DNA of 64,000 nucleotides, from positions 1,012-65,011 of the forward strand of contig JASLZL010000106.1 of the NCBI GenBank assembly GCA_030754885.1. The letters run 5' to 3'. A program made the translations under genes and the position numbers. The notes beneath the pieces were generated by a model. The model was not told where the DNA came from. It worked only from the letters and a program-made list of their open reading frames with translations, and ran no database searches. This stretch comes from Rhodospirillales bacterium. Lineage in GTDB: Bacteria; Pseudomonadota; Alphaproteobacteria; Rhodospirillales; JASLLZ01. Shown in pieces: positions 1,744 to 43,214 of this stretch. Positions within the stretch are counted from its first letter, which is position 1. Every line of letters starts with the position of its first letter.

Positions 1744-2607
1744 ATGGAGCCATCCGTCGCCGCCGTGGTCCTTTTGTCGGCCGCCCTGCATCCTTTGTGG
1801 AACGCGCTAATTAAGCGTGGCGCCGTGCCCGAAGCCTCGTTCATGGGCTTAATGGTGGTGATCGCACTGCTGTCGCTGGCCACCGTGGTCGTCATCGGTG
1901 CCGATTTGATGGCGGCCTGGAAAGTCTGGCATCTCGTCCTCATTTCCGCCTTCGGCCTGGTGCTTTATGGCACCGCCCTGGTCATGACGTTGCGGCGCGG
2001 CGACCTCTCGGCTTATTACCCCATCATCCGGTCCTCGCCGGTTTTCATCGTCATAGTGAGCGTCGTTTTCCTTGGTCAAACCTACGCGGCGCCGGTGCTT
2101 CTCGGCTTTGTCATGGTTATCGTCGGTGCCTTCTTCGTGCAGTATCGGCCGGGTGCACGGCTTTTGGATGATCCGAGGACCCTGACGTACGCCTTGTTGG
2201 GCATGAGCAGCACCGGCATCTATACGATCTCCGATGCCTTCGCCATGCAGGTCGTGGAACCGCCGGTATTCCTGTTTTGGGTGATGGTTATGTTCATTCC
2301 CGCCTACATGGCGGTCATGCGCGCCGTCGCTGGCCCGCGCCTGGGATGGCGCGCTCTTTTTGGCTGGGTCCGCACGCCCTGGCGTTCGGCCGGCACAGGC
2401 TTGATTGCCTATGGCTCCTATTCCCTGATCCTGATCGGCTTTGCCTGGGGCGGCGAGGTGTCAGCGGTATCGTCGCTGCGCCAGGCCTCGATCCCTATTT
2501 CCGTCCTTATCGGCGGCCTGTGGCTCAAGGAGGCGGGGTTGGCGCTCCGCCTGGCGGCGTCCGTCTTGCTTGCCGCCGGCATCGTGGTCGTCGTGCTCAC
2601 CGGGTGA
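1744..2607 (+). CDS. EamA/DMT-superfamily transporter
   Basis: 287-aa ORF with ~10 hydrophobic helices in a two-EamA-repeat layout. The N-terminus LLSAALHPLWNALIKRG is DMT-like. Confidence 0.75.
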   Translation: MEPSVAAVVLLSAALHPLWNALIKRGAVPEASFMGLMVVIALLSLATVVVIGADLMAAWKVWHLVLISAFGLVLYGTALVMTLRRGDLSAYYPIIRSSPVFIVIVSVVFLGQTYAAPVLLGFVMVIVGAFFVQYRPGARLLDDPRTLTYALLGMSSTGIYTISDAFAMQVVEPPVFLFWVMVMFIPAYMAVMRAVAGPRLGWRALFGWVRTPWRSAGTGLIAYGSYSLILIGFAWGGEVSAVSSLRQASIPISVLIGGLWLKEAGLALRLAASVLLAAGIVVVVLTG

Positions 2608-2770: not shown

Positions 2771-4027
2771 TCAGAAACGGTCGGGGCGGAAAGGCGCCAA
2801 GTCGACGCTGGGCGGGCGCCCTCCCGCCAGCTCGCCGATCAGCTTGCCGGTAATCGCCCCAACGGCGATGCCGATGTGGTCGTGGCCGAAGGCGAAGAGA
2901 ACGTTCGGATGGCGCGGCGCCGGGCCGATGACGGGTTTGGAATCGGGCAGCGACGGCCGGGGACCGACCCAGCGCGTAGCACCTTCCGTATTAAGGGTCG
3001 GGAAGAGGGCCTTGGCCTTTCTCTCGATGACATCGGTATGGGCCGGGTTGAGGGGCGCGTCCGGATCGGTGAACTCGGCAATGGAGGAACACCGGAGCCC
3101 GTGCTCCATGGGCGTAACGGCGACGTGGCGGTCGCGCGAATTGATGCACATCCGCAATTGGATTCCGGGTTCGGGGAACATAAGGTTGTAGCCGCGCTCC
3201 GCCGCCAGCGGCAGCTTGCATCCAAGTTGTGCCGCCAGCGGCTTGGACCAAGCGCCTGCGGCAAGAACGATGAGATCGGGCGTGTGGGTGGCACCGTCGG
3301 TGACTACGCGGGGTGGGCCTTCGGCGGCGAATTCGAAGCCTTTGACGGTTTCGGTAAGCAGGGTTCCGCCCTGGCGCACGAAGTTCTCGGCCAGGACCTG
3401 GGCGAGGCGGAGCGGATTCACGGTCACCGCCACGTCGGGCAGGAAAACGGCGCCGACGATACCGGGACCGAGCGCCGGCTCCATCTCGCGCGCCTCGTCG
3501 CCGCTCATCTCCTGGATCCGAATGCCGCGCCGCCGGCGCAAGTCGATGACGTATTTCGATTCGGCCAGGTATTTGGCGTCCTCGAAGATTTGCAAAAGCC
3601 CGTCGCGCCGGATCAACGTCTCGGCGCCGGATTCCGAGAGCAGTGGGTCATAGGCTTCGAACAGTTTGCTCAAAAGGCTATAGCGGGCGTCGGCAATGTC
3701 CTCGACGCGCTGGCGCCGTCCGGCCAGCGCAAAGCGCAGGAACCAAGGTGTCATGCCGAGAAGCTTCGTCCACGGCACCGACAGCGGTTCTTCGGGGTCG
3801 AGCAGCAGCCTCGGTACGCTGGGCAGCATGCCGGGCAGCGAGGCAGGTACGCATGATGCCACGCCAAGGTTGCCGGCGTTGCCTTCGGTCGCGCCCTTGC
3901 CTGGGCCGGTGCGGTCGATAAGCGTTACCCTGAGACCCTCGCGTTGCAAATAAAGGGCCGAGCAGACGCCGACGATGCCGGCGCCGATGACGAGTGCTGT
4001 GCGGTCGGGAGTTTGCGTCTCTGCCAT
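2771..4027 (-). CDS. FAD-dependent oxidoreductase, D-amino-acid-dehydrogenase (DadA/DAO)-like, paralog 1
   Basis: 418 aa. N-terminal dinucleotide fold ALVIGAGIVGVCSALYLQREG. C-terminal FAFGHDHIGIAVGAITGKLIGELAGGR...PFRPDRF shared with the two upstream paralogs. Confidence 0.85.
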   Translation of the reverse strand: MAETQTPDRTALVIGAGIVGVCSALYLQREGLRVTLIDRTGPGKGATEGNAGNLGVASCVPASLPGMLPSVPRLLLDPEEPLSVPWTKLLGMTPWFLRFALAGRRQRVEDIADARYSLLSKLFEAYDPLLSESGAETLIRRDGLLQIFEDAKYLAESKYVIDLRRRRGIRIQEMSGDEAREMEPALGPGIVGAVFLPDVAVTVNPLRLAQVLAENFVRQGGTLLTETVKGFEFAAEGPPRVVTDGATHTPDLIVLAAGAWSKPLAAQLGCKLPLAAERGYNLMFPEPGIQLRMCINSRDRHVAVTPMEHGLRCSSIAEFTDPDAPLNPAHTDVIERKAKALFPTLNTEGATRWVGPRPSLPDSKPVIGPAPRHPNVLFAFGHDHIGIAVGAITGKLIGELAGGRPPSVDLAPFRPDRF

Positions 4028-4029
4028 GA

Positions 4030-5280
4030 CTAAAACCGGTCGGGACGGAAGGGGGTGATGTCGATACTGGTCGGCCGTCCGGCTGCCAGCTCACCGATCA
4101 GCTTGCCTGTGATGGCGCCAAGCGTCAGCCCGATGTGGCCATGGCCAAAGGCAAACAGTACCTTTGGATGTCCGGGTGCGGCCCCGATCACGGGCATGGA
4201 ATCGGGCATCGATGGACGGGCGCCCATGCCGCGCTCAAGCTCGCGCATTTCAAGGCCGGGGATCAAGCCATCCGCCTGACGCAAGATGGCCAGCGCCCGG
4301 TCGTAATCCGGCGGCGAGTCGACGGGGGCGAACTCGGCACCGCTTGAGACCCTGAGCCCGTGTTCCATGGGACAAATGGCAAGAAGTTTGTCATTCCACT
4401 GCACCGGCACCTTCAGCCCCGGGTTGGGCAGCATCATGAAGTAGCCCCGTTCGGCTTGCATCGGCACACGGGTGCCCAGTTGCGCCGCCAGGGCCCTGGA
4501 CCAGGCACCGGCGGCGATGACGACAAGTCCGGCGGTGTGAGTGGCGGTCTCGGTGACGACCTTGGGTGGGCCGTCGGCGCCGGTCTCAAAGCCCTTGACC
4601 TTTTCTCTGAAAAGGGTGCCGCCGCTCCGTACCAGGTGTTCGGCCAGGACTTGCACCATGCGCTTCGGATTGACCACGTGGCCGTTGATGCGTTGGTAGG
4701 CGCCGTGCACGACGTTGGGTCCCAGCTTGGGCTCGACCTCGCGTGTCTGGTCGCCGTCAAGATCCTCAATCACGACACCGCGGCTACGGCGCAGATCGCG
4801 CTCATAACGGTTGTTTTCGAAGGCCTGGCGGCTGGTAAAAACGAAAAGGCGGCCTTGGCGCTGGATCATGTCCTGTGCCCCGGCGGCGCTGACGAGGGGC
4901 TCATAGGCCTCGAAGATATTGGAGACGACGGTTAACAGCGCATCCGTAATTTCATCGACGCGGCGTTGCCGACCGGCAAGCAAGAATCGGATGAACCAGG
5001 GTGTGGCCGGCAGAAAGTTGCTGGGCGGAACGGAGAGCGGATGCAGCCGGTTCATGAGCATGCCGGGCACCTTGCGCCACAGGCCGGGCAGGGAGAACGG
5101 AGCGCAACTTCCGCCGCCAAGGCCGCCGGCGTTGACCGCCGAGCAGGCCTCGCCCGGACCGTCCTTGTCGATCAACGTGACCTTGAATCCCTCGCGTTGC
5201 AGATAAAGAGCGGTGCACACGCCGACAATGCCGGCGCCAATGACCAGCGCTGTCTTTTCCTGGGATTTCATATCGGCCAT
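4030..5280 (-). CDS. FAD-dependent oxidoreductase, DadA/DAO-like, paralog 2
   Basis: 416 aa. ALVIGAGIVGVCTALYLQREG ... FAFGHGHIGLTLGAITGKLIGELAAGR...ITPFRPDRF. Its stop lies 2 nt upstream of the paralog-1 ATG. Confidence 0.85.
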   Translation of the reverse strand: MADMKSQEKTALVIGAGIVGVCTALYLQREGFKVTLIDKDGPGEACSAVNAGGLGGGSCAPFSLPGLWRKVPGMLMNRLHPLSVPPSNFLPATPWFIRFLLAGRQRRVDEITDALLTVVSNIFEAYEPLVSAAGAQDMIQRQGRLFVFTSRQAFENNRYERDLRRSRGVVIEDLDGDQTREVEPKLGPNVVHGAYQRINGHVVNPKRMVQVLAEHLVRSGGTLFREKVKGFETGADGPPKVVTETATHTAGLVVIAAGAWSRALAAQLGTRVPMQAERGYFMMLPNPGLKVPVQWNDKLLAICPMEHGLRVSSGAEFAPVDSPPDYDRALAILRQADGLIPGLEMRELERGMGARPSMPDSMPVIGAAPGHPKVLFAFGHGHIGLTLGAITGKLIGELAAGRPTSIDITPFRPDRF

Positions 5281-5283
5281 GGG

Positions 5284-6528
5284 TTAGAACCTCTCGGGGC
5301 GGAAGGGGGTGATGTCGATGCTTGGTTTACGCCCGGCCGCCAGCTCGCCAACGGTGCGCCCGGTGACGGCGCCCAGGCCGAGGCCGATCATGCAATGGCC
5401 GAAGGCGAAGAGCACCGAGGGATGTCCGGGTGCCGGTCCGATCACCGGCATGGAATCGGGGGTCGAGGGGCGATTTCCCATCCACCGCGTCATGCCGTCG
5501 GATCTGAGGCCGGGCACGAGTGCCTGAGCGTGGCGCACAATAGTATCGGCGCGGGCATAGTTGGGGGGCGCCTTAAGGCCTTCGAAGTCGGCGATGCCGG
5601 TGATGCGCAGCCCGTGTTCCATCTGCGAGATGATGATGTGGCGGTCGGACGACTGCACCGAGACACGGGTCGTCACCCCGGCGTCGGGCAGCATGGCGTG
5701 GTAGCCGCGCTGCGATTCCATGCACACTCGGGTGCCAAGCTGGGCTGCCAACTCCTTGGACCAGGCCCCGGCGGCAACGACGATGAGGTCGGGGTTGTGG
5801 GTGGTGGCGTCGGTCACGACCTTGGGCGGGCCGTCCGCGCCGAGCTCGAAGCCCTTGACCGTCTCGCGCAATACCGTGCCGCCCTTTTTCTGGAAAAGCT
5901 CGGCCAGGGTCTGGGTCAGACGCAAGGGATTGATGGTCTGGCCGGCGGCCGGGATGTAAGCGCCGCGTTTGATGGCCGGTCCGAGCGCCGGCTCGATCTC
6001 GCGTGCCTCGTCCCCGCTCAATGCCCTTACCTCGATACCGCGCCGACGGCGTAGATCGAGGGAGTATTGTCCGCCCGAGAAGGAAGCCTCGCTCTCATAG
6101 ACGTAAAGTTTGCCCTCGCGCCGGACCAGGTCACTGGCGTCGGTCTCGGCGAGCAAGGACTCGTAACATTCGAACAAGTCGGCGAGGGCGGCGCTCAACG
6201 CGTCGGCGATCTCCTCGACGCGCTTGGGCCGGCCAGCTTGGGCGAAGCGGATAAACCACGGCAGCGCCCGCGGTAGGTGAGACCAATGAATTTTAAGCGC
6301 CGAATCGGGATCGAACAGCATGGCCGGCACCTTGCCGAGCGATCCCGGCATGGCAAGGGGAATGAACGATGCGATGCCCAGACCGCCGGCATTGCCCGAC
6401 GAGCAACCTTCGCCGGGACCGTCGCGGTCGATCAGCGTTACGTCGAAGTCTTCGCGTTGAAGATAAAGCGCCGAGCAGGTACCGACGATGCCGGCGCCGA
6501 TAACCAGCGCTCGGCGCCCGTCCGCCAT
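5284..6528 (-). CDS. FAD-dependent oxidoreductase, DadA/DAO-like, paralog 3
   Basis: Track ORF runs to 6615. ATG at 6528 (MADGRRALVIGAGIVGTCSALYLQRED) gives 414 aa, matching the paralog lengths. C-terminus ...ITPFRPERF. Its stop lies 3 nt from the paralog-2 ATG. Confidence 0.8.
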   Translation of the reverse strand: MADGRRALVIGAGIVGTCSALYLQREDFDVTLIDRDGPGEGCSSGNAGGLGIASFIPLAMPGSLGKVPAMLFDPDSALKIHWSHLPRALPWFIRFAQAGRPKRVEEIADALSAALADLFECYESLLAETDASDLVRREGKLYVYESEASFSGGQYSLDLRRRRGIEVRALSGDEAREIEPALGPAIKRGAYIPAAGQTINPLRLTQTLAELFQKKGGTVLRETVKGFELGADGPPKVVTDATTHNPDLIVVAAGAWSKELAAQLGTRVCMESQRGYHAMLPDAGVTTRVSVQSSDRHIIISQMEHGLRITGIADFEGLKAPPNYARADTIVRHAQALVPGLRSDGMTRWMGNRPSTPDSMPVIGPAPGHPSVLFAFGHCMIGLGLGAVTGRTVGELAAGRKPSIDITPFRPERF

Positions 6529-6893
6529 CGGCGCGCCCGAACCCGTTGCCACCACGATTGAATCCCCCCGATCGATGATTGCGGAAAGCTTATCTTGCGG
6601 CCACCGCCGGCGCAAGATAGGGGCGACGGCGGCGAGCGGCCAAGGCGCGGATCATGAGCTGGAGAATTTTAGCGATAGTGCTTTTAACTTACCTAAGTTT
6701 GAAAATTAGTTTGAATATGTCGAATTTTAAAATGGTGGATAGTCAATAAAAGACAACAAAAAACAACAAAAAACAACATTTGCCCAGGATTATTGAAGTT
6801 TCGTTTGGATTTGGATAATAATGTCGTTGAGAGAGTTTCACGTTGCGGCGGGACACTGGCCGCTCACACCCCAAGACCTTGGGAACCTTCGTC
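6529..6893. promoter_or_regulatory. AT-rich divergent control region between the FAD-oxidoreductase operon and the ABC-transporter operon
   Basis: Composition drops sharply to AT-rich sequence at about 6660-6830. Direct repeats acaacaaaaa x2.6 (6753-6778) and tttggat/ttggata (6804-6817). A DeoR regulator is encoded at the end of the rightward operon. Confidence 0.5.
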
Positions 6894-7886
6894 ATGAAGA
6901 GAGGAATGAGAATTATGCACGATCTCGTCAGAAAATTTAGCGTCGCGGCCGTGGTTGCCTGTGTCACGGGTCTCGCTTGGGGGGCCGGAGACGCGCTAGC
7001 CAAGGACCTCGTGCTCTACACCGCCTCCAATCCAAAAATCGAAAAAGACATCATGGCGGCGTTCCGCAAGGCCCATCCGGACATCACCGTAAATGCGGTG
7101 AACATGTCGACCGGCCCGATCACCGAACGCGCCATCGCCGAGAAGGCCAATCCCCAGGCCGACGTAATTTGGATGATTAACAATATCGCCCTTGAGCAGC
7201 TCAAGGCTACGGGCGCCCTTGAGCCGTATGAGCCGAAGGGCACCAAGATCGACGACGCCTTCAAGGAAGAGGACGGATTCTGGAACGGTCACAACGCCAC
7301 AATCATGGCGATGGCCGTCAACACGAAGCTGCTGAAGGAAAAGAAGCTTCCCATGCCGACCGATTGGGTGGACCTGGTCAAGCCTGTCTACAAGGGGCAG
7401 ATCACCATCGCAGCGGCCACCAAGTCGGGCACGGGCCTCAGCATCCTGTCGACCATGCACGATGTTTTTGGCTGGAACTTTCTCGACAATCTTCACCAGA
7501 ACATCTTCCAGTACAATTCGTCGGGCAGCGCGGCGGCGCGTCAGGTGGGCGGCGGTGAGACCATCATCGGTCTCAGCTACGACACCGCCATCTTGCATCA
7601 GGTGCAAGCGGTGCCAGGTGTCGAGATGGTCATAGGCCGTATGTCGCCCAACGTTATCGAGGGCGCGGGCCTGCTTGCCGGGGCGCCTCATCCGGCGGAA
7701 GGAAAAATCTTCCTCGATTGGTTGTTCAGCGAGGGGGGAATGAAGGTATTCGCCCCCCATGTTGGCATCGGTGCCCAGGCCGGTTACGGCAATGTCGATT
7801 TGTCCAAGGTCCATATGTGGAAGCGCCGCCGGCCCTTGGACGCCAACGGATTTAAGCGCCAGTGGGCGTCGAAATTCGAAAAGTAA
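6894..7886 (+). CDS. ABC transporter periplasmic substrate-binding protein (Fe3+/AfuA-PotD-like family 1 SBP)
   Basis: Track ORF starts with TTG at 6843. In-frame ATGs lie at 6894, 6906 and 6915. Signal peptide ...KFSVAAVVACVTGLAWGAGDALA. Mature part DLVLYTASNPKIEKDIMAAFRKAHPDITVNAV... is typical of AfuA/FbpA-type binding proteins. Confidence 0.8.
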   Translation: MKRGMRIMHDLVRKFSVAAVVACVTGLAWGAGDALAKDLVLYTASNPKIEKDIMAAFRKAHPDITVNAVNMSTGPITERAIAEKANPQADVIWMINNIALEQLKATGALEPYEPKGTKIDDAFKEEDGFWNGHNATIMAMAVNTKLLKEKKLPMPTDWVDLVKPVYKGQITIAAATKSGTGLSILSTMHDVFGWNFLDNLHQNIFQYNSSGSAAARQVGGGETIIGLSYDTAILHQVQAVPGVEMVIGRMSPNVIEGAGLLAGAPHPAEGKIFLDWLFSEGGMKVFAPHVGIGAQAGYGNVDLSKVHMWKRRRPLDANGFKRQWASKFEK

Positions 7887-7963
7887 GCATTCGTACCAGC
7901 ACCAAATCCCACGGCACCGCCAAAGTGTAGGCGGGGCCGTGGCCCCTTGTCGGGAGAGGGCCC

Positions 7964-9046
7964 GTGGCGAAGCTGACTTTTCGTGGCGTGACCAAACGCT
8001 TCGGAAACGTGACTGCTGTCGACGACGTTTCCATGGACATCGCCTCGGGCGAGTTCGTGACCCTGGTCGGCGCCAGCGGTTGCGGCAAGACCACGCTGCT
8101 TCGCATCATCGCCGGATTTACCAAACCCGACAGCGGGGAGTTGGCCATCGACGGCCGCCGGGTCGAAGGCCTGCCGCCCAGCAAGCGTGAGGTCGGCTTC
8201 GTCTTTCAGTCCTACGCGCTTTTTCCGACCCAAACGGTGGCCCAGAACATCGGTTTCTCGCTCAGCATCCGGCGGCGCGGAAAGGCGGAAATCGAAAAAA
8301 GGGTGGCGGAGCTTTGCGTCCTGACCCAGCTCGGCGGGCTTGAGGACCGTTACCCGCACGAACTTTCCGGCGGTCAGCAGCAACGTGTCGCTCTGGCCCG
8401 AGCCCTTGCTCCCGATCCCGCCATCTTGCTCCTCGACGAACCTTTATCGGCATTGGACGCCAAAATACGCGCCCACCTGCGCGCCGAAATCCGCGCCGTC
8501 GTGGATCGACTGGGCATCACCACCGTCTACGTCACCCATGATCAAGAAGAGGCGCTGTCCATTTCCGATCGCGTGGCGGTCATGGAAGCAGGCCGGGTCC
8601 TGCAAGTCGGCCGGCCCATGGAAGTGTACCTGGAGCCGGCCAGTCTTTTTGTCGCCGATTTCATCGGCACCAGCAACCACCTGGACGGAAAGCCCAAGGG
8701 CAACGGAACGGTACAAATTGACAGCGGTGTCTTGCCGGCCCGGTTGCCGGGTACCGTCGCCGCTTTGGAACGCTGCGTGGTCTGTATCCGGCCCGAACAT
8801 GTGGATCTCTTTACCGCCGATACCGACGATACTCTAGGTGGCCGGCTGCTCTCCCATTCTTTCCTCGGACCCTCGGTGCGGGCCCGCGTGGCAATCGATG
8901 GGGGCGCCGAGCTGGAGGTCGACATCGCCACCGCCGATTGGCTGGCCAAGGGGCTCAAGGCGGGTGACGAAGTGGGTTGGCGCGTGCGTCCTGGTGGTGC
9001 CGTAGCCTTTCCGGTCGATAACGGCGATGCCACGGACGCGCAATAA
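7964..9046 (+). CDS. ABC transporter ATP-binding protein (PotA/FbpC-like, with C-terminal TOBE-like domain)
   Basis: GTG start. Walker A GASGCGKTT, signature LSGGQQQRVALAR, Walker B LLLDEPLSALD. The stop overlaps the permease ATG (TAATG). Confidence 0.9.
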   Translation: MAKLTFRGVTKRFGNVTAVDDVSMDIASGEFVTLVGASGCGKTTLLRIIAGFTKPDSGELAIDGRRVEGLPPSKREVGFVFQSYALFPTQTVAQNIGFSLSIRRRGKAEIEKRVAELCVLTQLGGLEDRYPHELSGGQQQRVALARALAPDPAILLLDEPLSALDAKIRAHLRAEIRAVVDRLGITTVYVTHDQEEALSISDRVAVMEAGRVLQVGRPMEVYLEPASLFVADFIGTSNHLDGKPKGNGTVQIDSGVLPARLPGTVAALERCVVCIRPEHVDLFTADTDDTLGGRLLSHSFLGPSVRARVAIDGGAELEVDIATADWLAKGLKAGDEVGWRVRPGGAVAFPVDNGDATDAQ

Positions 9047-11118
9047 TGCGCCGCATTCCCGGATACGTCGCCAGCCTGACTGTGGCGTTTTTGCTGTTCG
9101 TCTTCATTGCCTATCCCATCGGTTCCGTTCTTGTCGAAAGTTTCTCCGTCGAAGGACCGATGACCGTCTTCGAGCTGCGCGCATTGACGCAAGACGCCCT
9201 CGACAAGTTGGAGACGGCAACCCGTGAGAAAACGGTCGGGCGGTGGTTAAAGCGGGCCAAGCCGCGCCCGCGCATGGAGGCTGAGGCGGCCGCCCTTGAG
9301 TTGATCGGCGAGACCGTGTCCTGGGATCGCAAGGCACCCTTCGACGAACAAATCGCGGCGGCAAAAACCGCGATTGCGGGTCTCACGGCCGAGAAGCGGG
9401 CCGACTTCGAGGCCCAGTACCCAATTGCCTATGTGATGCTGCATAAGCGCATCCCGCTGGCCTTTAAGATCAAGGATCGGATCTCGCCGGACGAATTCGA
9501 AAGCTTGCGCACGGGTGCCCATGCCGGCTACGGGCTCAAGCACTACCTGGATGTGGTCGTCGAGGACCGCCTTATCAACGCCTTCAAGAACAGCCTCCTT
9601 CTCGCCTTCACCTCGTGCTTCGCGACGACGGCCCTGGCCTTTATCCTGGCCTACGGCGTTAATCGAGGTGGTGTTCGGTGGCCCAACTTTGTGCGCTACG
9701 CGACCTTGGTGCCGCTGGTCTCGCCACCGGTTCTGATCGCCACTGCAGCCATCCTTCTGTTCGGCCGCAACGGCGCCTTCACCCACGGCATCCTTGAAGA
9801 GCAGCTGCACTGGATCGATGCCGGCGTCACCAATTTGTACGGCTTCAGCGGCGTCGTCGTGGCCCAGATCCTGAGCTTTCTTCCGCCGGCCTTTATCATC
9901 ATGGACAACGTGCTTTCCAAGCACGATGGTCGGGTCGAGGAGGCGGCGGCAAGCCAAGGCGCGTCACCGGGGCAGGTATTCACCCGGGTCACACTTCCTC
10001 TCGCCCAGCCGGGCATCATCAAGACCGTGATCCTCAGTTTCATCCTGTCGATGACCGATTTCGGCAACCCATTGGTCATCGGCCGCGACATTCCCGTCCT
10101 TGCCGGCGTTCTCTACGACGAAATTATCGGCTTTCAGAACACCGAGTTGTCGGCGGCGTTGGCCATGTGGATGATCGTCCCGGCGTTGTCGATCTATTTC
10201 CTGCTTGAGGGCATCGGCCGGCGTAAGCGCTTCCATACCGGTAGCGCCACCGGCGGGCCGCCCGAACTGCCGGTGCCGGCTCCGGCACGCGCCCTGATCA
10301 CCACGGTGGCCGGGGCCAACATCGGACTGATCGTCCTTCTTTATGGCGCTATCGTCGCTGGATCGTTTGTCAGGATATGGGGCATCGACAACACCTTCAC
10401 CACGGCCTGGTATACCGCCGAGGAGGTGAGCGCGGCTTTCACGTCCGAATGGATCGGAGTCGAGGTGGTGTGGAAAAGCTTAGTAGTGGCGTTCATCGGC
10501 GGACCCATCGGCGGCTTTCTGGCAATGGTCGTCGCCTACCTGGTGGAGCGGGTGCGCCCGGCGGGCGCCAACCTGATAAGCTTTATTGCGCTGCTGCCCG
10601 CCATCCTGCCCGGCGTCATCTTCGGCATTGGCTACATCGTCGCCTTCAACTTGCCGTTTGGGCAGAAGGAGCTGGCCTTGACGGGCACGCAGTCCATCCT
10701 CGTTCTCAATTTGATGTTCGGCCATATCTATGTCGGCGTACTTGTCGGTCGCGCCGTACTGCAAAGGCTCGATGCCTCGGTCGATGAGGCGGCCGAGATT
10801 CTGGGCGCCACCTTAACCCAACGCTTCACTCGGGTGGTGCTGCCGATGATGCGTCACGCGGCACTCCTCGGCATGCTCTATGTGTTCGTCGAAACCATGA
10901 CCAGTCTCTCGGCCATCGTTTTCTTGGTCAGCCCTGGCAACGAACTCGCCGCCGTGGCGATCTTCGATACGGCGTCGAAGAACCACTACGGAGTCGCCTG
11001 TGCCATGAGCGTCACCATGCTGCTCATTGTCTTCGCCGTCATGGGGAGCATGTGGTGGATGGAGCGCCATGGGCCGGCTTGGGCGCGCCTTGGCGCCAGA
11101 GCGGCGGGCCGCACCTGA
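9046..11118 (+). CDS. ABC transporter permease, fused two-domain (FbpB/ThiP-like) with an enlarged loop after TM1
   Basis: 690 aa. Two BPD-transport-like halves (12+ hydrophobic helices). A ~150-aa hydrophilic insertion lies between TM1 (aa 8-30) and the next helix (aa ~183). Confidence 0.85.
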   Translation: MRRIPGYVASLTVAFLLFVFIAYPIGSVLVESFSVEGPMTVFELRALTQDALDKLETATREKTVGRWLKRAKPRPRMEAEAAALELIGETVSWDRKAPFDEQIAAAKTAIAGLTAEKRADFEAQYPIAYVMLHKRIPLAFKIKDRISPDEFESLRTGAHAGYGLKHYLDVVVEDRLINAFKNSLLLAFTSCFATTALAFILAYGVNRGGVRWPNFVRYATLVPLVSPPVLIATAAILLFGRNGAFTHGILEEQLHWIDAGVTNLYGFSGVVVAQILSFLPPAFIIMDNVLSKHDGRVEEAAASQGASPGQVFTRVTLPLAQPGIIKTVILSFILSMTDFGNPLVIGRDIPVLAGVLYDEIIGFQNTELSAALAMWMIVPALSIYFLLEGIGRRKRFHTGSATGGPPELPVPAPARALITTVAGANIGLIVLLYGAIVAGSFVRIWGIDNTFTTAWYTAEEVSAAFTSEWIGVEVVWKSLVVAFIGGPIGGFLAMVVAYLVERVRPAGANLISFIALLPAILPGVIFGIGYIVAFNLPFGQKELALTGTQSILVLNLMFGHIYVGVLVGRAVLQRLDASVDEAAEILGATLTQRFTRVVLPMMRHAALLGMLYVFVETMTSLSAIVFLVSPGNELAAVAIFDTASKNHYGVACAMSVTMLLIVFAVMGSMWWMERHGPAWARLGARAAGRT

Positions 11119-11142
11119 CAATTTCAATCAATGGAGAACGCG

Positions 11143-12006
11143 ATGACTAAACCACGGGTTTTTACCTGCACCTGGACGTTGCTTCCGGTAATGGACGAAA
11201 TTGAGGCGGCGCGCTTTACCGCCCGCGAGGGATTCGCGGGAATGGAAATCCAATGCAATCCCCTGGGCCTGTGGCCGACCACGGCGTCGCGGTCCACCAT
11301 CGACGAACTGATCGCCATCGGCGATGGCGAGGGAATCGAATACACGTTCTATCCCTCCGGCCTTCTTAATCCGGCGACCGATTTGCCCGAGGAACGCGCC
11401 CGCAACCAAGAGTTCCTCAAGCACTCCATCGACTTGGCCCAGCGGTTAGGCAGCCCCGTGCTTTGCATCCACCCCGGCGTGGCGGAGGAACTGTTCAGCC
11501 TTGAGCGCAAGGGCGTACCTTTTGAAAGCGATCGGTTCGACCGCCAGCGTCTGTTGGCCGACGCGCGCGCCCGCGCCGTCGAGGCGATCGCAGAATGGGC
11601 CGACGCGGCGGCTCAGGCCAATCTCATCATCCCCGTGGAAAACGAAGGCCATGTGCACCACACGGTCGCCCCGACCGCGACCCTGGTACGCGAGATGGTG
11701 GAGGCAACCGGGCGCGACAACGTCAAGGTCAACCTGGACACCGGCCACGCCTTTATCAACGAGGGCCTGAAGGAGGAATTCACCGTACTCCGCGACCGCA
11801 TAGTCCATGTCCACCTCAATGACGGACGAAAGATGGGGGTCAGCGAACACCTGTCCCTAGGCGAGGGCATAGCCGACTTTTCGCCGATGGCCGAATTCAT
11901 GAACACCTTTGGCGGCGCCCTGGTGCTTGAAATTTATGCCCCCGAGCGCCCCGTCGAGGCAATGCTGGAAAGCCGCGACTTCATTCTTGGCGTGGCAGCC
12001 CAATAG
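11143..12006 (+). CDS. Sugar phosphate isomerase/epimerase (xylose-isomerase-like TIM barrel), paralog 1
   Basis: ATG at 11143 (MTKPRVFTCTWTL) follows GGAGA and aligns with the paralog-2 N-terminus. VENEGHVHH...NLDTGHAF...HVHLNDG metal-ligand pattern of the AP_endonuc_2 fold. Confidence 0.8.
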   Translation: MTKPRVFTCTWTLLPVMDEIEAARFTAREGFAGMEIQCNPLGLWPTTASRSTIDELIAIGDGEGIEYTFYPSGLLNPATDLPEERARNQEFLKHSIDLAQRLGSPVLCIHPGVAEELFSLERKGVPFESDRFDRQRLLADARARAVEAIAEWADAAAQANLIIPVENEGHVHHTVAPTATLVREMVEATGRDNVKVNLDTGHAFINEGLKEEFTVLRDRIVHVHLNDGRKMGVSEHLSLGEGIADFSPMAEFMNTFGGALVLEIYAPERPVEAMLESRDFILGVAAQ

Positions 12007-12027
12007 GAAACGGAGCGAGCGCAGACC

Positions 12028-12894
12028 ATGACCGAGCCCCGTATCTTCACTTGCAACTGGACCTTGTTTCCGATCATGGACACGGTGGCGGCAGCGCGCC
12101 TCAGTGCCCGTGAGGGTTTCGCCGGGATCGAGTTGGAGTGCGACCCTCTCGGTTTTTGGCCGACCACCATCGCGGCGGCGACGGTTGCCGAACTGGCCGC
12201 CATCGGCGAGGGGGAGGGTTTGGCCTACACCGTGCATGCACCGGACGACCTCAACCCGGCCACCGCGCTGCCCGACCAACGCACGCGCGATGATGAGATT
12301 TTCAAGAGCCTGGTGGACCTGGCTCAACGTCTCAAAAGTCCGGTTGTCGGTATTCATCCCGGTGTCGTCGAGGGGCTGTTCGGCCTTGAGCGCAAGGGTG
12401 TGCCGTTCGCGACCGAGCGCTTCGACCGCGATGAATTGGCGCGCGACGCCCGCATGCGCGCCGTCGAGACCTATGTCCGCTGGGCCGGTCTGACAGCCGA
12501 GGCGGGGTTGACCCTGACCATCGAGAACGAGGTCCACGTGCACCACAGCGCCGCCCCCACGGCAGAGGTTTTGGCTGACCTGGTCGAGGCGACGGGACGC
12601 GACGACATTAAGGTCAATCTGGACACGGGCCATGCCTTTATCGGCGCCGGCTTGGCAGAGGAGTTCGCGGTACTCCGCGACCGCATCGTCCATATCCACC
12701 TCAACGACGGCCGAGCCAAGGGTGTCAGCGAACACCTGCCCCTGGGTGAGGGCGTGGCGGACTTCGCGCCGCTGGCTTCCTTTATGAACGACTTTGAAGG
12801 CGCGCTCGTGCTTGAGATATACGCGCCCAATCGGCCACTGGAGGCGCTTCTGGAGAGCCGCGACCACCTGAAGGGCATCCTGGCCGCCGCTTGA
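12028..12894 (+). CDS. Sugar phosphate isomerase/epimerase (xylose-isomerase-like TIM barrel), paralog 2
   Basis: 288 aa. MTEPRIFTCNWTL...IENEVHVHH...NLDTGHAF...HIHLNDG. Colinear with paralog 1 over its full length. Confidence 0.8.
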   Translation: MTEPRIFTCNWTLFPIMDTVAAARLSAREGFAGIELECDPLGFWPTTIAAATVAELAAIGEGEGLAYTVHAPDDLNPATALPDQRTRDDEIFKSLVDLAQRLKSPVVGIHPGVVEGLFGLERKGVPFATERFDRDELARDARMRAVETYVRWAGLTAEAGLTLTIENEVHVHHSAAPTAEVLADLVEATGRDDIKVNLDTGHAFIGAGLAEEFAVLRDRIVHIHLNDGRAKGVSEHLPLGEGVADFAPLASFMNDFEGALVLEIYAPNRPLEALLESRDHLKGILAAA

Positions 12895-12947
12895 CGCTTG
12901 ACCAAGCTTTTAGGCACAGTCAAGTCGATGCGACAGAGGGAAGCCCC

Positions 12948-13709
12948 ATGCTGGCCGAACAGCGGCGCAACGTGATTCTGGAGATTGTGGCGGAGCGGGG
13001 CTCGGTCTCGGTGAACGAGCTATTTCGCCGTCTTGCCGTGTCCCATGAAACCATCCGCCGCGATATCACGCGACTGGCCCGCGAAAATCGGTTGCGCAAG
13101 ACCCATGGCGGAGCGCTTTCAGTGAATTCGGTGGAACCCGCCTTCACCGAGCGCATGGGGGTCAATATCGAGGGCAAGCGGGCGATCGGACGGTTGGCCG
13201 CCGGCCTGGTTCCCGACGGTGCCTCGGTGATCATCGATTCTGGCACTTCGACCCTTTGCCTGGCCGAGGCCTTGAAATCCCACCGCCGTTTGACCGTCTA
13301 TACCAACGATATCCACGTTGCCGGGCGTCTGGCGGCGCGCAATGACAACCAGGTATTGCTTCTCGGCGGCGAAATTCAGGGGACCGAGGGAGCGACCATG
13401 GGCCGCGACACAACGGCCATGCTGGACAACTACTTCACCGACTTTTCCTTCATCGGCGTCGGGGCGCTAACGGCGCGGCCGTCGTTGATGGACTATTCCC
13501 GCGAGGCGGCCGAATTGCGCGCTCGCATGATTGTCTCGGCGCGCCAAGGTGTCCTTCTCGCCGAGCACACCAAGTTCAACCGTACAGCCCCCGTGCGTGT
13601 CGCCAACCTGGAAAAGGCCAGTCATTTGGTGGTTGATCGCAAACCCAAAGGCGCCCTTGAAAAAGCGCTTCGGTCCCTGGACGCCGAACTTCTGGTGACC
13701 GACGAGTAA
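12948..13709 (+). CDS. DeoR family transcriptional regulator
   Basis: ATG at 12948 preceded by AGAGGGAAG. HTH region RRNVILEIVAERGSVSVNELFRRLAVSHETIRRDITRL followed by a DeoR-C sensor domain (VIIDSGTSTL...). Confidence 0.85.
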   Translation: MLAEQRRNVILEIVAERGSVSVNELFRRLAVSHETIRRDITRLARENRLRKTHGGALSVNSVEPAFTERMGVNIEGKRAIGRLAAGLVPDGASVIIDSGTSTLCLAEALKSHRRLTVYTNDIHVAGRLAARNDNQVLLLGGEIQGTEGATMGRDTTAMLDNYFTDFSFIGVGALTARPSLMDYSREAAELRARMIVSARQGVLLAEHTKFNRTAPVRVANLEKASHLVVDRKPKGALEKALRSLDAELLVTDE

Positions 13710-18139: not shown

Positions 18140-19246
18140 TCAGTCGGCGCTGTCGAGATAGACCCGGTGGTAGCGCGACCCCAGTCCGGTCAGTATTTCG
18201 TAACCGATGGTGCCGGCCTCGGCGGCGACGGTATCGACGGGGTTGTGGGGGCCGATCAGGTCGACAAGGGCCCCCGGACAAGCCGCATCGACGGGTACGT
18301 CGGAAACATCCAGAGTGATAAGGTCCATGGAAACGCGTCCCACAATCGGCACCCGGATGTCTTCTATATAGCCATTGCCGGAATTGCTCAAGGACCGCAA
18401 ATATCCGTCGGCATAACCAACGCCGACAGTGGCGACGCGCCCCCGCCGCACCACGCGGTGGCTCGCACCATAACCAACGGTCTGGGGCCTGTCAACGTCA
18501 CGTACTTGCAGGATTTTCCCTTGTAAACGAACGACTTGGGCCATGGGATTGGTCTCGCCGGGACGCGGTCCGACGCCGTATAGTGCAACCCCCGGGCGGG
18601 CCAAGTCGAAGTGATATTCGGGGCCCAGGAATATCCCTGATGAGTTGGCGAAGGAGGCATGGACATCCTTAAACGGCTGGCGGACACGGAGGAAGTCCGT
18701 CAGTTGTTGGTGGTTAAGGGGATGATCGGCCTCGTCGGCACAGGCCAGGTGGCTCATCAGAAAAGTGAGCTTGATACCGTCGAGGCGCTCGGGCTCGCGG
18801 ATCAGGGTTTCGGTTTCGTCGGGCGGCAGGCCAAGGCGTGCCATGCCGGTATCGATGTGCACGTCGGCGGTCAGAGGTGCGCCATGGGTGCGGGCCAAAT
18901 CACCCCAGGACTCGATATCGCCCAGACTGTTCAAAACCGGGACCAATTGGTGGTCGATCAACGTCTTCCCGCTTCCCGGAACGGGCCCGTTGAGCACATG
19001 GATCGTCGCATTGGGGAGAACCCGTCGCACGGCCACCCCTTCGCCGACATGGGCGACGAAGAAAGTTTTGCATCCAGCCCGGGCCAGAGCCGGCGCCACC
19101 CGGTCGGCGCCAAGACCGTAAGCGTCGGCTTTGACCACCGCGGCGCATTCGGCGCCGGCCAGCATGCCTCTCAATAGCAGCCAATTGGCGACGATGGCAT
19201 TCAAGTCGATGGTAAGGACGGCGCCGGTGTGATCGGACTCGGGCAT
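18140..19246 (-). CDS. alr: Alanine racemase
   Basis: Track ORF extends into dnaB. ATG at 19246 (MPESDHTGAVLTIDL). PLP-lysine motif AVVKADAYGLG. C-terminal YEILTGLG. Confidence 0.9.
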   Translation of the reverse strand: MPESDHTGAVLTIDLNAIVANWLLLRGMLAGAECAAVVKADAYGLGADRVAPALARAGCKTFFVAHVGEGVAVRRVLPNATIHVLNGPVPGSGKTLIDHQLVPVLNSLGDIESWGDLARTHGAPLTADVHIDTGMARLGLPPDETETLIREPERLDGIKLTFLMSHLACADEADHPLNHQQLTDFLRVRQPFKDVHASFANSSGIFLGPEYHFDLARPGVALYGVGPRPGETNPMAQVVRLQGKILQVRDVDRPQTVGYGASHRVVRRGRVATVGVGYADGYLRSLSNSGNGYIEDIRVPIVGRVSMDLITLDVSDVPVDAACPGALVDLIGPHNPVDTVAAEAGTIGYEILTGLGSRYHRVYLDSAD

Positions 19247-19254
19247 GGATGGCT

Positions 19255-20760
19255 TCAGGCCTCGGGGTCGTGCCGGGTATCCAGGTCCCCGAAGCGCGTA
19301 AAGGCGCCCTCGAAGAATAGGGTGACGTTGCCGGTCGGACCGTGGCGTTGCTTCGCGACAAGGACCTCGGCCTTGTTTTTGACGGCATCGCGGCGCAATT
19401 CCCACCGACCATAGCGCTCGTGGAAATAATCTTCCTTCTCATCGATGCGTTGCGATGGTTGATCGCGCTCGAGATAGTATTCCTCGCGGAAAATAAACAT
19501 GACCACATCGGCGTCCTGCTCGATGGTTCCCGAATCGCGTAAGTCGGCCAATTGCGGACGCTTGTTGTCGCGTTGCTCGACGGCGCGCGAAAGCTGTGAC
19601 AGGGCCAGCACGGGAACGTCCAATTCCTTGGCCAGGGTCTTGAGACCACGGGTGATCTCTGAGATCTCCTGGACCCGCCCGTCGTTGCGGCTGCCCGGCC
19701 CCGGGCTCATGAGCTGCAGGTAATCAACCACGATCAGGCCAAGTTTTTCCGTGCGCTTGAGCCGGCGGGCGCGGGTTCGCAACTGGGCCACCGAGAGGGC
19801 TGGCGAATCGTCGATAAAGATGGGGGTGGAGTAAAGTTCCTGGCTGCCGACTGCCAGGCGGTTAAACTCATCGTTGGTAAGCTCGCCCTTGCGCATGCGG
19901 TCGGACGAAATGTTGGTCTGCTCGGAAATGATGCGGCTGGCCAGTTGTTCAGCCGACATTTCCAGCGAGAAAAACCCGACGACGGCTCCGTCGTCGGCCT
20001 TGGTTCTTCGATTGGTGTAGGCGGCGTTGAATGCGATATTTGTGGCCAGGGCGGTCTTGCCCATCGACGGCCGTCCGGCCAGGATTACCAGGTCGGAACG
20101 GTGCAGGCCGCCGAGCAAGGTGTCGAGATCGCGTAAACCCGTGGGGACGCCGCTAAGGCGACCTTCACGCTTGTGGGCCGCCTCGGCCATTTGGATGGCG
20201 TCGAGCAAGGTGTCCTTGAAGGGCCGAAAACCACCTTCGAATTCTCCGGTGGCGGCCAGCTCAAAAAGACGGTGTTCGGTCTTCTCGATCTGCTGGTCGG
20301 CGGTCTCGTCGACTTCGGCACCGAAGGCGTCATTGACGACGTCCTGGCCAAGGGCGATGAGCTGGCGCTTGAGATAGAGATCATGGAGGAGGCGGCCATA
20401 TTCGCCGGCGTTTATGACGGTGGCCGCCGAGGCGGCAAGGTCGGCGAGATAAGCCGCACCGCCGATGTCGAGCAGGCCTTCGTCCTGTTCGAACAGAATT
20501 TTCAAGGTCACCGGGTCGGCGATCTGGCCACGCTCAATGAGGCGTGCGCAAGCCTCGAAGATGCGCCCGTTCTGGGCCACGAAAAAGTGCTGCGACTGCA
20601 GGAAATCGGTAACCTTCTCATACGCCCGGTTGTCGATGAAGATGGCGCCCAGCAAGGCTTTTTCGGCCTCGATGTTGTGGGGTTGAGAGCGGAAAACAGA
20701 ACCGCTGATATCGTCGTTGGATGACGAGACGGTAGGGGTGGAGGTCAATGCGGTTGCCAT
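19255..20760 (-). CDS. dnaB: Replicative DNA helicase
   Basis: 501 aa. PHNIEAEKALLGAIF, Walker A GRPSMGKTA. Full-length DnaB architecture, no intein. Confidence 0.95.
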   Translation of the reverse strand: MATALTSTPTVSSSNDDISGSVFRSQPHNIEAEKALLGAIFIDNRAYEKVTDFLQSQHFFVAQNGRIFEACARLIERGQIADPVTLKILFEQDEGLLDIGGAAYLADLAASAATVINAGEYGRLLHDLYLKRQLIALGQDVVNDAFGAEVDETADQQIEKTEHRLFELAATGEFEGGFRPFKDTLLDAIQMAEAAHKREGRLSGVPTGLRDLDTLLGGLHRSDLVILAGRPSMGKTALATNIAFNAAYTNRRTKADDGAVVGFFSLEMSAEQLASRIISEQTNISSDRMRKGELTNDEFNRLAVGSQELYSTPIFIDDSPALSVAQLRTRARRLKRTEKLGLIVVDYLQLMSPGPGSRNDGRVQEISEITRGLKTLAKELDVPVLALSQLSRAVEQRDNKRPQLADLRDSGTIEQDADVVMFIFREEYYLERDQPSQRIDEKEDYFHERYGRWELRRDAVKNKAEVLVAKQRHGPTGNVTLFFEGAFTRFGDLDTRHDPEA

Positions 20761-40234: not shown

Positions 40235-41650
40235 TTACAGCACCTTGCCGGGGTTCATGATGTTCATGGGGTCCAGCGTTCTTTTCAGGGTCCGCATCAG
40301 ATCCAATTCGACGGCCGATTTGTAGCGTACCAGCTCGTCCCGCTTGAGCGTGCCGATGCCGTGCTCGGCCGAGAAGCTGCCGTCCATTTCGGCAGTCAGG
40401 TCGTGGACGATGTGGTTGAATTCGTCCCAGCGGGCGACAAAGGCGTCGGTGTCGGCGCCCACCGGTTGGCTCAGGTTGTAGTGGATGTTGCCGTCGCCGA
40501 CGTGGCCGAATGCCAGGATGCGGACGCCGGGCAGGGCCGCCTCGACTAATGCACCGGCGCGGCGCACGAACTCGGCAACCCGGGAGACCGGCACAGAGAC
40601 GTCGTGCTTGATGCTGCCGCCCTCGAACTTCTGGCAGTCCGAAAGCACCTCGCGGACACGCCACAGCTCGCCTCTCTGGGCCTCACTGGCGGCGATCACC
40701 GCGTCTTCGGCAATGCCGTCGTCGAGGGCCTGGGCGAGGATCGTCTCCAGCGCCTCTCTCAGTCCCGTACCGCCCTCTGGTCCGGTTAGTTCGATGAGTG
40801 TGTAGAAGGAATGGGCGTCGGCGAAGGGATCGACGACCCCGGTCATGTGCTTGACGGCGAATTCCATCCCTAAGCGGGGGATCAGCTCGAAGGCGGTGAG
40901 CGCATCGCCGCAGGCGTCGCACATGCGCGAAAATAAGGTCAGGGCCTCCTCGGCGCCGCTGACGGCGGCCATCGCGGTCTCGCGCGAGGGCTGTTGGGGA
41001 TAGAGCTTCAAAACGGCGGCGGTGATAACGCCAAGTGTCCCTTCGGCGCCGATGAAGAGGTGCTTGAGGTCGTAACCGGTGTTGTCCTTGCGTAGTCCGC
41101 GCAGGCGCTCCCACACTCGGCCGTCGGGCAGCACGACCTCGAGGCCCAGCACCAGATCGCGGGTGTTTCCATAGCGCAGAACCTGGACGCCGCCGGCATT
41201 GGTTGAGAGATTGCCCCCTATTTGGCAACTGCCCTCGGCGGCCAGGCTGAGGGGGAACAGACAGCCGGCTTCGTCGGCCGCATCCTGGATCGTGGCGAGG
41301 ACGCAGCCGGCCTCGACGGTCATGGTGTGATTAAGGGGATCGACGTCGCGTATGCGGCTCATACGGCCCATGGACAAAATGACGCCGCCGTCGGGAACGG
41401 CGCCGCCTTGCAATCCGGTATTGCCCCCCTGGGGGGTGACGGGAACACCGGCCTTGGCGCAAATTTCAATTACCCGCGCTGTCTCTTCGGTCGAGGCGGG
41501 GCGGATCACGGCGGTGCAGGTGCCGCGCCAGAAACCACGAGCCTCGATCAGGTGCGGTTCCATTTCGCCTTTGTCGTCGATCCAACCCTTGCGGCCGACC
41601 ACGCCTAAGAGCGCTTCGGTCACACCTTCGGGTACAGGCTTCACCGTCAC
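40235..41650 (-). CDS. FAD-binding oxidoreductase, GlcD/D-2-hydroxyacid dehydrogenase-like, copy A
   Basis: 471 aa, GTG start overlapping the copy-B stop (GTGA). FAD_binding_4 region PQGGNTG...GGNLSTNAGG. C-terminal GSFSAEHGIG...MNPGKVL. Confidence 0.85.
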   Translation of the reverse strand: MTVKPVPEGVTEALLGVVGRKGWIDDKGEMEPHLIEARGFWRGTCTAVIRPASTEETARVIEICAKAGVPVTPQGGNTGLQGGAVPDGGVILSMGRMSRIRDVDPLNHTMTVEAGCVLATIQDAADEAGCLFPLSLAAEGSCQIGGNLSTNAGGVQVLRYGNTRDLVLGLEVVLPDGRVWERLRGLRKDNTGYDLKHLFIGAEGTLGVITAAVLKLYPQQPSRETAMAAVSGAEEALTLFSRMCDACGDALTAFELIPRLGMEFAVKHMTGVVDPFADAHSFYTLIELTGPEGGTGLREALETILAQALDDGIAEDAVIAASEAQRGELWRVREVLSDCQKFEGGSIKHDVSVPVSRVAEFVRRAGALVEAALPGVRILAFGHVGDGNIHYNLSQPVGADTDAFVARWDEFNHIVHDLTAEMDGSFSAEHGIGTLKRDELVRYKSAVELDLMRTLKRTLDPMNIMNPGKVL

Positions 41651-43062: not shown

Positions 43063-43214
43063 GGAAGTATGTCTCCGTGATTTAAGAGCGGCCCACAATA
43101 GGCAACGGCCGGCGTGGTGCAAGGCACGATTGGTGGGCGCCCAAACGGCCCGTACCACTTGCCTTTCGTTTGCCTTACAATCGGGCGCGGCGATACGGAG
43201 GAGAGACGCGAGCC

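Follow-up and report, generated by a model that had tools for sequence, protein, structure and literature searches.

The 64,000-nucleotide stretch of a Rhodospirillales bacterium genome analysed here (from contig JASLZL010000106.1; hereafter the window) carries on its minus strand three adjacent genes, which we call A, B and C, each encoding a flavin adenine dinucleotide (FAD)-dependent oxidoreductase of the glyphosate oxidoreductase (Gox) family. We consider it probable that A, B and C are isozymes of this family that act independently of one another and differ in their substrate pockets, that they form an operon with a single promoter, and that they arose in a lineage-specific expansion. Most likely, the locus represents an ordinary expansion of a gene family within one lineage and not a new kind of enzyme complex. 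Gox has been present in glyphosate-tolerant crops since the 1990s, though its natural role is unknown (PMC12452685), and the locus would provide a panel of three or four naturally diverged, co-expressed members of the family for mapping specificity determinants.

Family identity of the three paralogues

Gene A (positions 5284-6555, minus strand) encodes a protein of 423 amino acids (aa) if translated from the GTG at 6555, or of 414 aa from the ATG at 6528; gene B (4030-5280, minus strand) encodes 416 aa, and gene C (2771-4027, minus strand), an accessory member of the array, 418 aa. All three match the Pfam family PF01266 (DAO), with E = 3.8e-61, 3e-59 and 7.9e-64 for A, B and C, respectively, and the proteins are 56.6% (A-B), 57.2% (A-C) and 55.0% (B-C) identical. 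Pairwise identities of 55-57%, together with PF01266 matches of E ~1e-60 in all members, place the likeness of the three far beyond chance. An earlier note on this DNA had described three colinear genes of 414-418 aa coding for DAO-family flavoenzymes, and the Pfam matches and open reading frames bear this out, A measuring 414 or 423 aa depending on its start. The N-terminal motif given there, ALVIGAGIVG(T/V)C(S/T)ALYLQRE(D/G), is present in A, B and C, as is the C-terminal signature FAFGH..IG...GA(I/V)TG...PFRP(D/E)RF, except that the GELAAGR it was said to include reads GELAGGR in C. Gene conversion was ruled out as the cause of these conserved termini, where third-position identity is no higher than elsewhere; the longest identical nucleotide run is <=20 nt. 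Their conservation reflects constraint at the protein level.

We compared the three proteins with the reference Gox, ACZ58378.1, whose sequence was taken from the supplementary FASTA of PMC12452685. Identity over the full length is 42.1% for A, 40.1% for B and 39.0% for C (410-419 aligned residues; E 1e-105 to 1e-92), and the similarity of >35% to the reference Gox by which the family was delimited in PMC12452685 is reached by all three over the full length. A profile built on the family scores Gox at 457 bits vs 182 bits for Escherichia coli DadA, family members show a median identity of 41% with Gox vs 25% with DadA, and in a neighbour-joining (NJ) tree rooted with DadA, Gox is nested within the family, beside two Chelativorans sequences. 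Because identity, profile score and tree position all compare in this way with DadA, the closest characterised enzyme is, judged by sequence, Gox and not DadA.

Gox is an FAD enzyme that cuts the C-N bond of glyphosate and iminodiacetate to yield glyoxylate, reportedly without release of H2O2 (PMC12452685). The evolution of Gox-like FAD-dependent oxidoreductases was studied by Giannakara et al. 2025, who describe eight motifs plus a proline-rich region in a set of 2220 sequences from 843 species, commonly multi-copy and rich in Alphaproteobacteria and Rhodospirillales (PMC12452685). Tandem arrays are not described in that paper, from which the word 'tandem' is absent. All eight motif regions (M1-M8) align in A, B and C. 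Applied as strict regular expressions, the motifs, which are >=80% consensus patterns, are recovered in 4/8 cases in A, 4/8 in B and 3/8 in C, and in 6/8 in the reference Gox itself; the deviations are single residues, such as SAVNAG in M3 of B, AFGHCMIGL in M8 of A and AFGHDHIGI in M8 of C, and those specific to one paralogue fall in M2, M3, M5, M6, M7 and M8. A, at 423 aa, lies within the 420-460 aa filter applied to the published dataset (PMC12452685), and B (416 aa) and C (418 aa) fall slightly below it; this is a data filter and not a biological criterion.

The description of the array as DadA-like in the earlier note was correct for the architecture, which is collinear over the full length, but the proteins are only 24-26% identical to E. 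coli DadA (E about 1e-27) and score far under the DadA cutoff. Indeed, all three proteins stay below the cutoff of every curated NCBIfam model. The best-scoring model is DadA NF001933 (183.2, 168.1 and 170.6 bits for A, B and C vs a cutoff of 383), and a second DadA model, NF009074, gives 113, 105 and 89 bits vs 494. The ThiO model TIGR02352 is matched with partial coverage at 115.2, 133.3 and 119.6 bits vs 250.8, the SolA model falls far under its cutoff for all three, and SoxB TIGR01373 (27 bits vs 529) and TIGR03329 (22-23 bits vs 632.8) are more distant. No DNA match was obtained in searches of plasmids and annotated records, and protein matches, at <=44% identity, bear generic names only.

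An AlphaFold2 model of A (predicted local distance difference test, pLDDT, 91.3; predicted template modelling score, pTM, 0.91) retrieved with Foldseek glycine oxidase, CmiS2, the PDH1 beta subunit (1Y56_B), IdaA and sarcosine oxidases, at 15-21% identity. By profile, the best relatives of solved structure are glycine oxidases (E = 6.6e-38). IdaA (6PXS, 379 aa) was ruled out as the closest relative (profile E = 1.8e-22, 20% identity by Foldseek); Chelativorans loci carry family members. An identity with PbfB, PbfC, PbfD or TIGR03329 was also ruled out, similarity being local and weak: with the family profile, PbfC scores 38.5 bits, PbfB 21.7 and PbfD2 13.8, and PbfD1 gives no match (Pbf sequences were recovered from the text of Fig. 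S2 of PMC10590968 by optical character recognition).

Operon anatomy, copy number and paralogue divergence

The three genes are tightly packed and almost certainly co-transcribed. In the following, relatives of the locus are designated by L numbers, L003 being a locus of the Rhodospirillales metagenome-assembled genome Arabian10_MAG_36. Spacers of 3 nt and 2 nt had been noticed before and are exact: the A-B junction (5278-5286, minus strand) reads TAA-CCC-ATG from 5286 to 5278, and the B-C junction (4025-4032, minus strand) TAG-TC-ATG from 4032 to 4025. An equivalent of the 3-nt A-B junction is kept in L003, L001 and L090, and the B-C junction of L003 is TAG-GTC-ATG. Each downstream ribosome-binding site was also thought to lie inside the upstream gene. 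This is so for B, with a Shine-Dalgarno (SD)-like GAGAGG within A, 9 nt upstream of the B ATG, but not for C, upstream of which no SD-like motif is evident, so that coupling of C would need termination-reinitiation. The stoichiometric co-expression supposed in the earlier note is a deduction from the spacing alone. The ATG at 6528, where the earlier note began gene A, is not kept in orthologues, which read SPPADGRR and PRAGGRR at this place, and the GTG at 6555 is the more likely start. Its position is conserved as a start among A orthologues (ATG in L001, L090 and L091), and the resulting 423 aa match the length of database gene calls.

Upstream of A, a promoter-like element and leader (6556-6615, minus strand) comprise TTGCGC (6615-6610), a 17-nt spacer, TAAGCT (6592-6587) and an SD-like GGGGGGA (6569-6563) placed 7 nt before the GTG at 6555. 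Neither hexamer varies upstream of A in the window, L003, L090 and L091, or upstream of Z, an additional family member in L003, where copies of the element lie at 8560-8640 and 9905-9967, upstream of Z and A'. Since it is present upstream of both Z and A' in L003, the element was duplicated together with the gene. Of the three genes, A alone is preceded by TTGCGC-N17-TAAGCT; we infer that it would act as a promoter followed by a short leader. Internal promoters or terminators in the array are not more numerous than shuffled expectation, and no credible Rfam match to a riboswitch or other RNA element was obtained in the leader. The spacer between the hexamers is itself well conserved, and could contain an overlapping operator.

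At the other end of the array, three copies of GGCCGGGTGGGGG (one inverted, two direct) occupy 2640-2734, between the 3' ends of C and a convergent EamA gene. Three matches were found vs 0.11 expected by chance, and none elsewhere in the window; the repeats are possibly a repetitive extragenic palindrome (REP)-like element or a bidirectional terminator ending the operon.

Copy number was assessed at 79 family loci from a scan of one genome per species; these derive from the best 80 of 402 pattern matches and are not a census. A single family member was detected by the family profile within +/-10 kb at 77 of them, and the two exceptions both come from Arabian10_MAG_36. One is L003 (91% orthologue), which is fully syntenic with the window but in which four copies, Z, A', B' and C', follow one another, Z (8505-9899) being 58% identical to A. 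The same genome has three further copies at L015/L087 and one at each of four more loci, giving at least 11 paralogues. A JGI metagenome contig with a 96% orthologue of A matches the window in its three genes, in both spacers (3 nt and 2 nt) and in the neighbouring genes. L001, L002 and L090 (85-88% relatives) have A and B only, with a transposase or unrelated sequence after B and no ABC operon upstream. B follows A with a 3-nt spacer in all six relatives having sequence downstream of A. Within the clade, copy number is therefore 2, 3 or 4, A-B being the constant core and C and Z variable. No tandem family member accompanies L008, the nearest relative of A, or L038 and L015_9878, those of B. 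No further member occurs anywhere in the 64-kb window, and a metagenome scan for further close relatives returned two short contigs only.

The duplicates are old, and each is under purifying selection. Orthologues of A are 96, 91, 88 and 85% identical to it, those of B 88-99.5%, and that of C in L003 93%; one-to-one orthologue pairs (A 91 and 88%, B 89 and 88%, C 93%) may be compared with paralogue-paralogue identities of 50-58%. The ratio of nonsynonymous to synonymous divergence (dN/dS) between orthologues is 0.09-0.19 overall (A 0.13-0.14; B 0.11-0.12; C, with L003, 0.09), and dS between paralogues, at about 1, is saturated. It is from these one-to-one orthologues, dN/dS values and paralogue dS that we conclude that the copies are old and have been kept by purifying selection. 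In the NJ tree, A, B and C are not mutual nearest relatives: A pairs with Z, and B and C pair with other paralogues of Arabian10_MAG_36.

All 44 family-invariant residues are retained in A, B and C. When 7 A, 8 B and 4 C orthologues were compared, 90 positions proved to be fixed within each orthologue group yet different between groups, and 25 of them differ in all three. Several group-specific residues stand directly beside catalytic motifs (in the order A/B/C, GH-C/G/D, RGY-H/F/N, SSG/SAV/TEG-NAG and RPS-T/M/L). One of the positions aligns with Gox His334: in A it is residue 342 (423-aa numbering) and always H, whereas the B group has Q there and the C group K. Substitutions at Gox 334 presumably affect glyphosate affinity in the engineered GOXv247. 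Of GOXv247, the text of the European Food Safety Authority (EFSA) says only that three substitutions improve kinetics.

In the 88% relatives L001 and L002, both ENA metagenome contigs, IS1595-type and Transposase_mut genes border the A-B pair, and gene C and the ABC/TIM operon are missing, yet purF and a short-chain dehydrogenase/reductase (SDR) gene are still nearby; this indicates that the locus has recently been rearranged by mobile elements there. The copy at L004 is split by an in-frame stop and may be a pseudogene or an assembly error. Several of the Arabian10_MAG_36 paralogues (among L007, L010, L013, L004 and L015/L087) adjoin dihydrodipicolinate synthase (DHDPS)-family and coenzyme A (CoA)-transferase genes, which suggests that these other paralogues serve different pathways, possibly of a cyclic imino-acid type. 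A D-hydroxyproline-type pathway (DAO plus DHDPS) was considered for the array and found not to apply: DHDPS genes flank the paralogues at L007, L013, L015/L087 and L089 and not A, B or C, and none is found in the window. In other genomes, hydantoinase-like genes are the second most frequent neighbour of Gox-family genes (9 loci).

Readings of the array and of its neighbourhood

Independent isozymes are favoured by the single-copy norm of the family, the variable copy number in the clade and the catalytic motifs kept in all copies, and diversified substrates by the 90 group-fixed positions, several of which lie beside catalytic motifs. A-B-C would be transcribed from the one conserved promoter-like element upstream of A, and B and C would be translated off the same mRNA across the 3-nt and 2-nt junctions. 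Each protein would be an enzyme in its own right, predicted by analogy to oxidise, in substrates of the amine or amino-acid type, a C-N bond beside an acidic group. If Gox is a guide, the substrate type may be N-carboxymethyl secondary amines such as iminodiacetate, and hydrolysis of the imine product would then give an amine and an oxo-acid of the glyoxylate type; substrate class and electron acceptor are both predictions. A, B and C are expected, on the same analogy, to act on N-substituted glycine-type or related acidic amines by oxidative C-N cleavage. With a common catalytic core and differing pockets, the array would widen the substrate range and would build no single complex. It would form part of a family expansion in one Rhodospirillales clade, in which A-B stayed stable and C and Z were gained or lost. 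Of the sequential or alternative amine oxidations suggested by the earlier note, the alternative ones correspond to this reading. The arrangement had also been thought undescribed; literature searches on multi-copy or tandem dadA-like arrays indeed gave no description, but it is best regarded as a local tandem array in a commonly multi-copy family.

A number of points weigh against independent, diversified isozymes. The substrate class is derived from one characterised relative at about 40% identity, Gox, of which the natural substrate is itself unknown (PMC12452685). The NJ tree carries no bootstrap support, and the location of group-specific positions near the active site means adjacency to conserved motifs in sequence. 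A strict sigma-70 consensus scan does not call the TTGCGC-N17-TAAGCT element. Lastly, the A-B adjacency with a 3-nt spacer in 6/6 relatives would also fit an A-B heterodimer.

It is this conserved adjacency, along with a spacing tight enough for translational coupling, that could speak for a hetero-oligomer, in which A and B form one dehydrogenase whose stoichiometry is set by the coupling, C or Z possibly serving as interchangeable further subunits. We regard this as improbable. With a single member at 77/79 loci, the fold evidently works without a paralogous partner; the nearest relatives of A and of B have no tandem partner, and the presence of C and Z varies from one close relative to another. 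With complete FAD-binding and catalytic motifs and similar dN/dS, none of the copies looks like a degenerate regulatory subunit, and the known heteromeric DAO-type enzymes use unrelated partner subunits, none of which is encoded here: there is no non-homologous partner subunit in the operon, whose neighbours are the EamA transporter and the ABC/TIM/DeoR operon. An obligate complex of A, B and C, one form of the hetero-oligomer that the earlier note had considered, is thus unlikely given the single-copy loci, the 2-4 copies in relatives and the invariant residues kept in each paralogue. Redundancy, that is, isozymes performing the same reaction on the same substrate and kept for dosage or differential regulation, would agree with the same fold, the same catalytic motifs and co-transcription, and copy number varies among relatives as that of dispensable copies would. 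We give it very little credence: simple redundancy is unlikely for copies that are this old and under purifying selection, since such long persistence of paralogues with their own one-to-one orthologues would not be expected. The 90 group-fixed differences, several beside catalytic motifs, and the lack of gene conversion keeping the copies alike point the same way, and co-transcription from one promoter speaks against differential regulation.

The remaining alternative involves the neighbouring genes. Divergent from the array, a plus-strand operon (6915-13709) encodes, from Pfam and NCBIfam scans, a solute-binding protein (SBP; 6915-7886; best NCBIfam model PhnS2, 177 bits vs cutoff 393), an ABC ATPase with a TOBE domain (7964-9046; PhnT2, 386 vs 458), a fused permease of ~690 aa (9046-11118; PhnU2, 279 vs 593), two xylose-isomerase-like TIM barrels (11131-12006 and 12028-12894; mutually 64% identical; CbiR, 46 and 64 vs 105) and, as its last gene, a DeoR regulator ending at 13709. 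Convergent with C is an EamA-family transporter gene (1744-2607, plus strand), whose best NCBIfam model is TIGR03340 (phn_DUF6), a 'phosphonate utilization associated putative membrane protein' (98 bits vs cutoff 288). The EamA gene and the divergent operon are both syntenic in L003 and the JGI contig, and the divergent genes share a 350-bp intergenic region with the array. Its AT-rich core (~6750-6800) contains a TGTTGTTTTT-type direct repeat (TGTTGTTTTTTGTTGTTTTTTGTTGTCTTTTATTG), nearly identical in L003, which may serve the divergent promoters as a binding site for a regulator or as curved DNA. The SBP-ATPase-permease-TIM module is rare, its TIM barrel being duplicated in the window, and the TIM-barrel family is small (96 database matches). 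The module may, from its best-scoring models, be an organophosphate or phosphonate uptake-and-hydrolysis unit.

If the two operons formed one pathway, the Phn-like importer would bring in an organophosphonate or organophosphate amine, the CbiR-like TIM barrels would process it, and A, B and C would perform successive or branch-specific C-N oxidations; one example would be a natural compound, glyphosate-like or an N-alkyl-aminophosphonate, that is N-dealkylated step by step. The divergent layout with its 350-bp intergenic region, kept in the window, L003 and the JGI contig, fits this picture, as do the best models for the transporter (PhnS2, PhnT2, PhnU2), the EamA protein (phn_DUF6) and the TIM barrels (phosphodiesterase CbiR). 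Gox moreover cuts a phosphonate-bearing secondary amine (PMC12452685), and PbfC and PbfD are DAO-family enzymes acting on N-methyl-2-aminoethylphosphonate (N-methyl-AEP; PMC10590968). We nevertheless hold such a pathway to be unlikely. All Phn-like and CbiR-like scores are well under the curated cutoffs, and none of the three array proteins is a PbfB, PbfC or PbfD. The A-B pair occurs without the divergent operon in L001, L002 and L091, at L084 and L086 the SBP-ATPase-permease-TIM module stands on its own, with no DAO gene, and no SBP homologue lies near any other family member at the 79 loci, where de novo clustering found no conserved neighbour of the family (the best was an ABC ATPase, in 13 loci). 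A Pfam scan of the window's open reading frames, covering 1-49 kb of the 64 kb, revealed no phnW, phnX, phnA, phnY or C-P lyase gene, nor any other gene of phosphonate metabolism. A functional link of the divergent operon to the array is not supported by comparative genomics. Should the co-regulation nevertheless be real, three or four Gox-like enzymes co-regulated with a Phn-like importer and CbiR-like TIM barrels might catabolise natural N-substituted aminophosph(on)ates, possibly with an A-B heterodimer and C or Z as alternative specificity subunits, a combination that strikes us as very unlikely. In that event the array could give a clue to what the Gox family does in nature, and a true transporter link would give the family its first physiological context; otherwise, the locus is a routine tandem paralogue expansion in a family of catabolic enzymes.

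Elsewhere in the window, as scanned to about 49 kb, the genes are those of chromosomal housekeeping (purF, cvpA, radA, alr, dnaB, fab genes, pdxA, surA and lptDFG). A second tandem paralogue pair was noticed in a region made up of 40235-43242 (minus strand) and 43086-45212 (plus strand), where two adjacent FAD_binding_4/FAD-oxidase_C genes resembling GlcD and D-lactate dehydrogenase adjoin a Hydantoinase_B/oxoprolinase gene.

Comparison with known systems

Gox (ACZ58378.1 of Ochrobactrum sp. G-1; O. anthropi LBAA) is the nearest characterised system: A, B and C are collinear with it over the full length, share its motif regions and belong to the same length class (~415-430 aa). At ~40% identity they are not its orthologues, and the Chelativorans sequences (53%) are nearer to Gox. 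DadA (NF001933/PRK00711) shares with the three proteins a ~50-residue insertion after the FAD-binding motif, which glycine oxidases lack, but forms the outgroup to the whole family, and no dadX-type racemase partner adjoins the array; the alr gene at 18140-19438 belongs to a radA-alr-dnaB group of housekeeping genes.

ThiO (4YSH, 1RYI, 1NG3) and IdaA (6PXS) resemble A in the two-domain glycine-oxidase/DAAO fold (Foldseek E 1e-28 to 1e-26, TM-score about 0.72-0.76) and in the C-N oxidation of glycine-type substrates. They differ in being only 17-21% identical, about 45-50 residues shorter and without the helical insertion, and ThiO is an H2O2-forming oxidase, whereas Gox reportedly releases no H2O2 (PMC12452685). 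PbfB, PbfC and PbfD (Zangelmi et al. 2023, PMC10590968), which act on N-methyl-AEP or AEP in the breakdown of phosphonates, are likewise PF01266 flavoenzymes that oxidise amine C-N bonds and occur near Phn-type transporters, but the phnWX, phnWYA or phnX cluster context was not found around A-B-C in the 1-49 kb scanned. Finally, SoxABDG, OoxAB, HcnABC, PDH1 and LhpBEF have in common with the array a DAO-fold catalytic subunit encoded in a tight operon, the PDH1 beta subunit (1Y56_B) being a good fold match. In those systems the partners are unrelated proteins of the pyridine-nucleotide-disulfide oxidoreductase or 2Fe-2S types, whereas here the products of the adjoining genes are mutual paralogues.

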